Source: Eledone cirrhosa
Lineage: Eukaryota
Direction: 5' to 3'
Length of the DNA: 64,000 bases
Assembly (NCBI GenBank): GCA_964016885.1
Contig: OZ024740.1
Location: 150,226,001 to 150,290,000, forward strand
Position 1 is the first letter of the stretch. Each line of letters opens with the position of its first letter. The position numbers and the translations under genes were made by a program. Of this stretch, positions 35,565-38,638 are shown in pieces. Below the pieces are notes generated by a model. It saw only the letters and a program-made list of their open reading frames with translations, was not told where the DNA came from and made no database searches.

Positions 35565-37294
<1,730 letters not shown>

Positions 37295-37420
37295 TTTTAT
37301 TACTCTCGGTTTCTCCTCCCTGTCTTGTGTTATTTTGTTTGCCTGTATCTGTGTGCTGTGTCTAAAAAATGGTTGGGGTAGAGGGGTTGTCTGCTGATGT
37401 TAAGTGGTCTCCTGTGTTTG

Positions 37421-38638
37421 TTATATTCCTTGTTGTAAAATGTGGATCGGGTTCGTGGTTCTAGATTGAATGGGGGTGTTCCTGTATTGCGAGTATGGAT
37501 GTGTGTTTCTATGTGCCATGTTGGATTGTGGTGTTATAGGTGGCCTACGTTGTTGGTTGTATCGTGTGGTGTGGGTTTGTTGTGTATTGTGGAAACGAGA
37601 GTTGAGAAAATGGAAATTACCTTGCTGTCCCCTTGAAGCGGGGAAGTTGTTACATCTATCATGGTGGTGGTATCTTTTCCCTATGTTTGATGATGAGGCA
37701 TCCGCATAGTAGTTGAGTGATTTGGTATGGTGTCTCCTTGAAGGGGGAAAGTTGTAAATGTCATTCTGGGGGAGATGATTTCTAGGGTTTTTGTTCCTTC
37801 TTATGGTAGCGAGGTTGGGAAGTTCATCTTCGGTGTGGTGCTTCCTTCTTCTTCTGTTAGTGGCTGGGGGGTTTGCGAAGTTGTTGTGCGGTTCGGTTAT
37901 GGGTTTTCCTATTTTTATGAACGGGTTATTGTTGGTGTAATCCGTTTGAAAAGTCGATTCATAGTTTAGGAACCAAGCGGCACTTTTTTCCCAGCGTTGA
38001 AGGGATTTCAGTTCTTCTCTGTTGCAGTCCCCTTTCCATAATTTAGAGATCTTCTCTATCTTGGGGCCTTCAGTCTTATTGTTGATTTCCAGGAGGATCT
38101 CTTCATCGATGGTTTGGATTTTTTCCTCATTTGTCTGGGCCCTCAATTTAAGAAGTTCAATTTCTGTCTTCATTTTTTCCAATGCCATTCTTTCCCTAAG
38201 GTGTCTTTGAGGTTCGGGTTCATTTGGAATGGACTTTATTTGTATTTTACGGGGGAGAGTTAGAGGGGTTGAGTTAAGCCCTTTTTCATATATCTCCGCT
38301 TTGTTGTGATTTTGTATCATCTTCCAGAATGAGAACTTTCTGTCTCTGAGGGATTTGTTCCATTTTGGAATTGTTCGAATTTTCATTTTGTATGAATCAA
38401 TCTCACATGGTTCTTCGTTGGTTTTTCCTGGGTTGGTAGTAGTGAACATAGTTTGTATAGTATCGCAAAGCTTTTGAAGTTTATCGCCGATTTCGGAGGG
38501 TTTGTATCCAGTGACGGTTTCCTCATTTGTGGAGTCAAGTTTGTCGACCAGCACAGATAGGTTGGTGTTAATTTTCTTGAGCTCCTGTAGAATCTCTTCA
38601 TTTGTGTTGATAAGAGTTGTATCTGTTTTTGTTGGCAT
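37421..38638 (-). CDS. PLE2 ORF1: coiled-coil-like N-terminal half and basic disordered tail
   Basis: 405 aa ORF directly upstream of RT; heptad-like EKMKTEIELLKLRAQTNEEKIQTIDEEIL. Confidence 0.7.
   Translation of the reverse strand: MPTKTDTTLINTNEEILQELKKINTNLSVLVDKLDSTNEETVTGYKPSEIGDKLQKLCDTIQTMFTTTNPGKTNEEPCEIDSYKMKIRTIPKWNKSLRDRKFSFWKMIQNHNKAEIYEKGLNSTPLTLPRKIQIKSIPNEPEPQRHLRERMALEKMKTEIELLKLRAQTNEEKIQTIDEEILLEINNKTEGPKIEKISKLWKGDCNREELKSLQRWEKSAAWFLNYESTFQTDYTNNNPFIKIGKPITEPHNNFANPPATNRRRRKHHTEDELPNLATIRRNKNPRNHLPQNDIYNFPPSRRHHTKSLNYYADASSSNIGKRYHHHDRCNNFPASRGQQGNFHFLNSRFHNTQQTHTTRYNQQRRPPITPQSNMAHRNTHPYSQYRNTPIQSRTTNPIHILQQGI

Follow-up and report, generated by a model that had tools for sequence, protein, structure and literature searches.

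A putative −1 frameshift site conserved at the ORF1–reverse transcriptase junction of Neptune-like Penelope elements

The heptamer U UUU UUA between ORF1 and the reverse transcriptase (RT) of two Penelope-like elements (PLEs) probably acts as a slippery site and is conserved; there, a minority of the ribosomes on ORF1 likely slip back one base and produce an ORF1-RT-endonuclease (EN) fusion. Both elements, PLE1 and PLE2, lie on the minus strand of a 64,000-nt stretch of AT-rich animal DNA from Eledone cirrhosa (the window), and their RTs are 49.5% identical. The overlapping ORFs, the −1 position of RT, the tandem-slippage phase, the family-wide conservation and the lack of a conserved RT AUG before the first conserved motif were read directly.

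The ORF1–RT junction and the state of the PLE2 copy

The following features of PLE2 and PLE1 define the junction.

37330..38638, minus strand: ORF1 of PLE2, with an N-terminal helical/coiled-coil core (about aa 12-233) and an N/R/Q-rich low-complexity tail
37363..37369, minus strand: candidate slippery heptamer U UUU UUA of PLE2, whose X XXY YYZ phase matches the ORF1 codons His-Phe-Leu
37330..37332, minus strand: ORF1 stop TAA of PLE2, 10 sense codons past the Leu codon of the heptamer
35690..37369, minus strand: RT reading frame of PLE2, −1 relative to ORF1, with putative entry at the heptamer
19731..19737, minus strand: heptamer of PLE1 (...KIHFL TSGQ...), phase as in PLE2
17425-19752, minus strand: PLE1, a second family, 5′-truncated with an intact RT-EN; RT-EN frame, PF01541 above the cut-off

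The first-pass annotation had reported a heptamer at 37363-37369 of PLE2 and at the equivalent junction of PLE1, and both were found in the same phase. The sequence that it called the heptamer, CATTTTTTA, contains the heptamer and is itself a 9-mer. On the minus strand of PLE2, 37371-37363 reads CAT TTT TTA, within which TTTTTTA is 37369-37363; the 9-mer of PLE1 at 19739-19731 is identical. Frame 0 of PLE2 reads ...PLYPNHFL DTAHRYRQTK* with its stop at 37332-37330, and the −1 frame reads FF RHSTQ...VIKMINLT...LSKGLKF and is open into RT, as the annotation had described. The M of MINLT is 25 codons past the first F of the −1 frame, in agreement with its estimate of about 24 codons. The RT frame of PLE2 reaches the RT thumb and is then ended by a (TA)n tract at about 35690. 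The PLE RT matched RVT_1 with an E-value of 2.6e-6, which is below the Pfam cut-off, and the ORF1 remnant of PLE1 matched the ORF1 family member P0100 over 80 residues (E 8e-13).

The two junctions had been described as otherwise dissimilar, and this was correct: the best local DNA match was a 15-nt stretch that is not the heptamer, and no other DNA could be aligned. A T6 run occurs once per 2.9 kb of sense strand in PLE1 and in PLE2, each time at the ORF1/RT junction. The bare 9-mer occurs 5 times in the window against 1.2 expected, and 2 of 100 shuffles were as high, which is weak evidence alone. Chance is unlikely for the PLE1 and PLE2 heptamers because of their position and phase, not because of the bare 9-mer count. 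The ORF1 tail also has a degenerate internal repeat at 37600-37760 on the minus strand (YNFPPSRR / NNFPASRG, NFHFLN), which holds a second, non-slippery CAT TTT CTC.

We compared the PLE2 copy in the window with other copies in four sequencing runs (X1, X4, X6 and X7, of 24 listed) over 37050-38750, using all contigs. Indels were considered at 15% of depth or more, and substitutions for 40 of 295 rows. The features that bear on the state of the copy are as follows.

37472..37476, minus strand: five-base homopolymer run with one extra base in the window copy; other copies have one base fewer
37292..37294, minus strand: ATG of MINLT; ATT (Ile) in most other copies
39969..40780, minus strand: upstream PLE2 copy, 5′-truncated and decayed by stops and frame breaks, comprising RT thumb, CX4CxxC linker and GIY-YIG endonuclease
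35691..35887, no strand assigned: direct repeat, a pseudo-LTR-type overlap, repeated at 40598-40773 (blastn)
40770-40860, inverted: 92-bp inverted piece (blastn)

The ORF1 called in the window (38758-37421) lies in the RT frame with two stops, at 37423-37421 and 37402-37400, and the annotation had concluded that one upstream indel was required. That indel was found at 37472, where 1 nt is absent in 4275.5 of 4286.1 depth in X1 (99.8%, 3 contigs) and in 8.86 of 8.86 depth in X4 (100%, one contig spanning 37152-37684). In X7, from a more diverged organism, the gap was seen in 237 of 3677 depth with no other majority indel among those considered, a count in which short repeat contigs may hide the gap; X6 has no cover at this position. 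The other indel inside ORF1 and the junction is an in-frame 3-nt insertion behind 37429, which accompanies the 37472 deletion. When the one base is removed, ORF1 is in frame 0 and open through HFL to the stop at 37332-37330, giving about 436 residues. Alignment of the copies, proposed in the annotation as the means of fixing the ORF1 frame, thus placed ORF1 of X1 and X4 in the ...NHFL frame with RT in −1. The extra base at 37472-37476 is specific to the window copy, either as a mutation or as an assembly error, and throws ORF1 into the RT frame, where it meets the two stops.

The ATG of MINLT is present in the window copy as annotated and proved to be a minority allele: among the substitutions considered, 37292 differs in 6364 of 6448 depth in X1, in all of X4 and in 1493 of 2419 depth in X7. 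This ATG is not a conserved start. Position 38281 differs from the window copy in all four runs, which gives the conserved Trp of the family. The window PLE2 copy carries private changes, and it is dead because its ORF1 is frameshifted, its RT ends in (TA)n, and the endonuclease is decayed in the upstream partial copy. The upstream copy (39969-40780) and the main body of PLE2 form a partial tandem. A 119-bp piece at 50138-50254 is 74% like the 5′ untranslated region of PLE2 (38820-38937), in the opposite orientation.

Conservation in related elements and in the ORF1 family

A metagenome scan with the RT N-terminus reduced 344 pattern matches to three loci (L001, L002 and L003). In L002, ORF1 reads ...NNSFL G (T TTT TTA) and RT is in the −1 frame. 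In L001, ORF1 reads ...NDNFL Y (T TTT TTG), so that Z is G, and the RT frame, preceded by two stops, becomes open right at the site. L001 is complete, comprising ORF1, an RT-EN frame of 770 codons and a 113-bp terminal repeat; its ORF1 has one frame break (760-772), as in PLE2, and its RT-EN is open over the 770 codons. L003 has an RT with no ORF1 homolog or site upstream and is uninformative. Scans of prokaryotic and viral DNA collections (viral scans with A1, RT and A3; genome scans; pattern scans) found nothing. Two further candidates, L004 and L005, were rejected as chance matches antisense to or across phage genes.

The DNA context was thus available for four elements (PLE1, PLE2, L001 and L002), and the RT linkage of the other ORF1 clusters is assumed. 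In all four, the site reads T TTT TTA or T TTT TTG with RT in −1; it is an in-phase X XXY YYZ heptamer and lies where the two ORFs overlap. The first-pass annotation had suggested a survey of related PLEs for a T6-type site before IN[LI][ST], and L001 and L002, which are unrelated metagenome elements, showed this site with the same phase and −1 geometry. In 4/4 elements, a stop 0-10 codons upstream of the site closes the RT frame, and a stop 10-23 codons downstream of it closes ORF1; therefore, the frame switch must fall in the overlap. No Met precedes the IN[LI][ST] motif in PLE1, L001 or L002, and that of PLE2 is the minority allele described above.

Two word searches gave eight ORF1 relatives, one of them from Octopus bimaculoides, and a profile was built from these. 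The profile search identified 896 ORF1 clusters (50% identity) at E ≤ 0.001 among 1.84 billion representatives. The best 150 of the 896 clusters were all of 541 aa or less, with none fused to RT, and no ORF1-RT fusion was found among 7627 candidates of 708-2020 aa, which is weak evidence alone. ORF1 is normally separate from RT, because the best 150 are short and no long fusion was found. The predicted ORF1 core consists of long helices (mean pLDDT 87.9). ORF1 matched no Pfam family, and none was common to more than one of 108 members; the ESM Atlas gave no usable match, and the PDB searched by sequence gave only generic coiled-coil matches. Foldseek found no match to the predicted fold at E ≤ 0.001, and the best VIA match (Z 8.8, rmsd 5.3 over 140) is not meaningful for helical bundles. 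ORF1 is a large, real and previously unannotated family. By analogy with the coiled-coil ORF1 proteins of non-LTR elements (PMC3905857), the protein may be an abundant RNA-packaging component.

We took 155 ORF1 proteins, of which 97 of at least 290 aa were used and 58 shorter ones were left out; two were near-duplicates. Phe-Leu or Phe-Phe (F[LF]) occurred within the last 40 residues in 80 of the 97 long members, against 5 and 8 in two preceding windows and a mean of 13.7 (maximum 24) in 500 shuffles. When the last 60 residues were taken, F[LF] was present in 82/97 (FL 76, FF 6), and in 11/97 for the preceding 60 residues; at this chance rate, a few of the F[LF] assignments are therefore wrong. 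Intact relatives of ORF1 end in the same H/R-F-L frame. The residue before FL was never K, Q, E, M or W, whose codons cannot end in U (0/82; background 21%). Profile-selection bias was checked and rejected as the cause of the signal, since F[LF] was kept in 20 of 24 proteins whose profile match ended at least 45 aa before the C-terminus, leaving the tail outside the profile.

F[LF] was missing from the final 60 aa in fifteen of the 97 long proteins, some of which appear truncated; four of the fifteen end in F-R. These four (P0019, P0040, P0056 and P0085) have Phe-Arg at the place equivalent to Phe-Leu, and P0040 and P0056 align with the FL-bearing P0029 and P0037 through DHNW. Such Phe-Arg ends might point to a variant of the shift site, either A AAU UUU or a +1 site of the UUU CGN type.

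Proposed frameshifting, alternative explanations and stop-codon spacing

U_UUU_UUA is the HIV shift site, as stated in a published study (PMC5009743). Ribosomes translating ORF1 would reach this sequence, where tRNA-Phe and tRNA-Leu could re-pair on UUU UUU as at the HIV-1 site. The minority that slip back one base would make the ORF1-RT-EN fusion, and most ribosomes would stop shortly past the site and release the ORF1 protein alone, so that the slip would set the ratio of ORF1 protein to enzyme. We infer both the slippage itself and this control of the ratio from the sequences.

The main rival explanation is splicing, with the U-run as polypyrimidine tract at a 3′ splice site and RT translated from an RNA in which ORF1 has been removed and an upstream exon linked with the RT frame. 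Spliceosomal introns are known in PLEs according to an earlier report (PMC4209133); TTTTTTAG in PLE2 and L002 resembles a 3′ splice site, CAG/G is found 7 and 12 nt further on in PLE1 and L001, and G, E or D comes next after FL in 52/82 proteins. However, a polypyrimidine tract need not keep the phase of ORF1, yet 82/97 proteins have F-L or F-F in frame, and a non-G codon comes next in 30/82, so that, unlike the heptamer, AG is not invariant. The candidate AGs also lie in differing RT phases (phase 2 in PLE1, PLE2 and L002; phase 1 in L001), against an RT that is −1 in 4/4 elements, and we regard splicing as improbable. RT might instead be produced by termination-reinitiation or internal initiation near the ORF1 stop, with Phe-Leu as a protein motif of the ORF1 tail. 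The constrained stop distance would suit this route, stop-restart also yields the −1 geometry, and the stop contexts in the RT frame are AUAA, AUAG, AUAA and GUAG. It is nonetheless quite improbable: no AUG overlaps the stop in 4/4 elements, and constraint at the DNA level is seen both in how the codons are spelled and in the U preceding Phe, which a peptide motif would not need.

RNA polymerase could also slip on T6 and add a base, so that a fraction of transcripts would fuse the frames without ribosomal slippage. No element has a second homopolymer as long as T6, and no RNA stimulator was found, both of which agree with this reading; polymerase slippage is, however, indifferent to codon phase, yet the phase is fixed (FL 76 and FF 6 of 82), and six T are short for slippage by cellular polymerases. 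We consider it very improbable. The first-pass annotation had raised one long ORF1-RT ORF with two nonsense mutations in this copy, which would make the heptamer a matter of chance. The called ORF1 does lie in the RT frame in the window, and the X7 depth is mostly without the gap at 37472. This reading is nevertheless largely refuted by the majority copies without the extra base in X1 and X4; no in-frame ORF1-RT fusion was found (0/150 homologs), and the relatives end in the HFL or RFL frame. We find it hardly credible.

For ribosomal −1 frameshifting, a downstream stimulator was sought in the four elements. A stable stem-loop 5-9 nt past the site was absent in 4/4 (MFE compared with shuffles), and folds over 60-100 nt downstream gave MFE values of −0.8 to −10.4 kcal/mol, never better than shuffles (ViennaRNA, calculated without pseudoknots). 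A downstream pseudoknot seems unlikely in this A-rich sequence. A small hairpin is located upstream of the PLE1 site (z −2.1), with no counterpart in PLE2. As no RNA hairpin was found, the site would depend either on a low-level, structure-free slip or on help from a ribosome paused at the nearby ORF1 stop.

Stop spacing was analyzed in 80 proteins after removal of two near-duplicates. The ORF1 stop was never closer than 10 codons behind Phe-Leu (0/80) and was exactly 10 codons behind it in 25/80, with a stop rate of 3-9% per codon for codons 11-18. The 10-residue tails share only 10.5% identity, and their distance from the core, measured for 16 of the 25, ranges over 185-429 residues; the spacing in PLE2 and L002 is also 10. 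The spacing-10 state is inherited and not scattered (22/33 rows in PLE2's clade; 11 changes against 22.2 in shuffles). In the four nearest relatives of PLE2, position 11 is Trp and the tail lengths are 20, 20, 20 and 26. In the subgroup nearest PLE2 (P0002-P0005 and P0013), Trp stands at position 11 where others stop, and four of the five stop at 21.

Ribosomes that queue at a stop codon are spaced 30 nt apart (PMC12852954). Ten codons equal this queue spacing, and a terminating ribosome could therefore act as a roadblock. We tentatively suggest, as a rather unlikely possibility, that the −1 slip is stimulated, without RNA structure, by a ribosome that pauses on the stop codon of ORF1, which lies 10 codons (30 nt), or one ribosome length, further on; the queued ribosome would then sit on U UUU UUA behind the terminating one. 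If true, this model would explain the minimum of 10, the peak at 10 and the missing hairpin, and it would tie enzyme output to the ribosome load on ORF1. The plain alternative is passive spacing by a polar linker, with the frame-0 stop arising from the first Ile/Val codon in the RT motif. This fits PLE1, L001 and L002, but not PLE2, where the stop is 15 codons before INLT.

Classification and comparison with known systems

PLE-type RT motifs (LSKGLKF and ADKG) are present in PLE1, PLE2 and L001. GIY-YIG with two cysteines between GIY and YIG was found in PLE1 and intact in L001, and is decayed in the upstream PLE2 copy (39969-40280). The CX2-5CxxC linker between RT and EN reads CNDNRCGTC in PLE1, CDRPNCGIC in the upstream PLE2 copy and CDDKRCDCC in L001. 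PLE2 shows a partial tandem (pseudo-LTR) with an inverted piece, and L001 a terminal repeat. By these motifs, PLE2 appears to be an endonuclease-bearing, Neptune-like Penelope element. It departs from the canonical single-ORF description of EN+ PLEs in that the ORF1 and RT-EN frames are separate. The presence of EN also sets it apart from the EN-minus Athena/Terminon elements, for which an ORF1 frameshift with a pseudoknot was reportedly described by Arkhipova in 2017.

No hammerhead was detected in PLE2 by Rfam at the gathering score, none was credible at E ≤ 5, and the simple core pattern was absent within 35690-40860. Elsewhere in the window, repeated minimal hammerhead-like cores (CUGANGA...GAAA) were seen at 9303-, 9613-, 10234+; 11279+, 13469-, 14103+, 55263-; 41140+, 47957-; and 51538+, 53217-. 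They form at least four sequence families with direct and inverted pairs, are not scored by Rfam, and are probably pseudo-LTRs of other PLEs or retrozymes. A third and more distant PLE family has left a fragment of its GIY-YIG endonuclease at 53458-53784 (minus strand), beside the hammerhead-like motif at 53217. RTE/CR1-type LINE pieces are located at 32612-35174, 45588-47900, 29725-30378 and 56466-56609 (all minus strand); they include an element that has AP-endonuclease and RT but is interrupted by frame breaks, as well as an RT frame of 770 codons that ends in C2H2-like fingers.

In common with Neptune/Nematis EN+ PLEs, the elements have LSKGLKF, DKG, the CX2-5CxxC linker, GIY-YIG with an inner CxxC, and a partial tandem with repeats; they differ in the separate, unannotated ORF1 of about 400 aa and the conserved −1 site. 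Canonical EN+ PLEs are single-ORF according to the abstract of Craig et al. 2021 (PMC8557442), and single-ORF EN+ and two-ORF EN-minus PLEs are contrasted in another paper (PMC6431247). A large group (896 ORF1 clusters) would instead have a separate ORF1 and a retrovirus-like expression switch. This two-ORF layout changes how consensus sequences, RT starts and activity of EN+ PLEs are judged. The family would also provide hundreds of natural U UUU UUA variants, seemingly without an RNA stimulator, and the constrained stop distance raises the question of whether a terminating ribosome can stimulate −1 frameshifting. Our literature search found no paper on this ORF1 family, on the heptamer in EN+ PLEs or on the stop spacing, and for a frameshift in EN+ PLEs it gave one relevant statement, the Fig. 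1 legend of Craig et al. 2021; subscription papers, Repbase and bioRxiv supplements, which were beyond the search, may already describe them.

A killifish Neptune element, CL27 (CL27Contig27_13), offers a parallel: as judged by eye in the supplement of a preprint (PMC12602865), its RT apparently lies −1 of an upstream ORF, and a heptamer of slippery type occupies the overlap. There, the upstream ORF is esterase-like, and G UUA AAU is followed by an immediate stop and, about 6 nt behind, by a GC-rich hairpin (by eye). The word 'frameshift' does not occur in the main text of that preprint. Frameshifting may thus be general among Neptune-like elements, with different signals. In SARS-CoV-2, the stop codon of frame 0 is 5 codons off and is proposed to let the pseudoknot refold (PMC8168617), whereas the PLE ORF1 stop is at least 10 codons off with no structure seen.

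HIV-1 gag-pol shares with these elements U_UUU_UUA, its phase, a structural ORF upstream of RT and, often, a G as the next base (PMC5009743). Here, in contrast, no downstream stem-loop was detected, no Gag homology, zinc knuckle or significant fold match was found for ORF1, and the element is of the non-LTR type. The first-pass annotation had likened a coiled-coil ORF1 plus a frameshift to gag-pol control, and this reading is supported, with these differences. The two-ORF PLEs of Craig et al. 2021 likewise have a coiled-coil-type ORF1 upstream of a PLE RT and a frameshift; according to the legend of their Fig. 1, a frameshift with a pseudoknot can separate ORF1 (PMC8557442), whereas no pseudoknot or hairpin was detected here. 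A frameshifted PLE ORF1 is therefore already known, and what appears to be new is that it occurs in endonuclease-bearing elements, across the whole family, apparently with no RNA structure and with a stop distance that is constrained.
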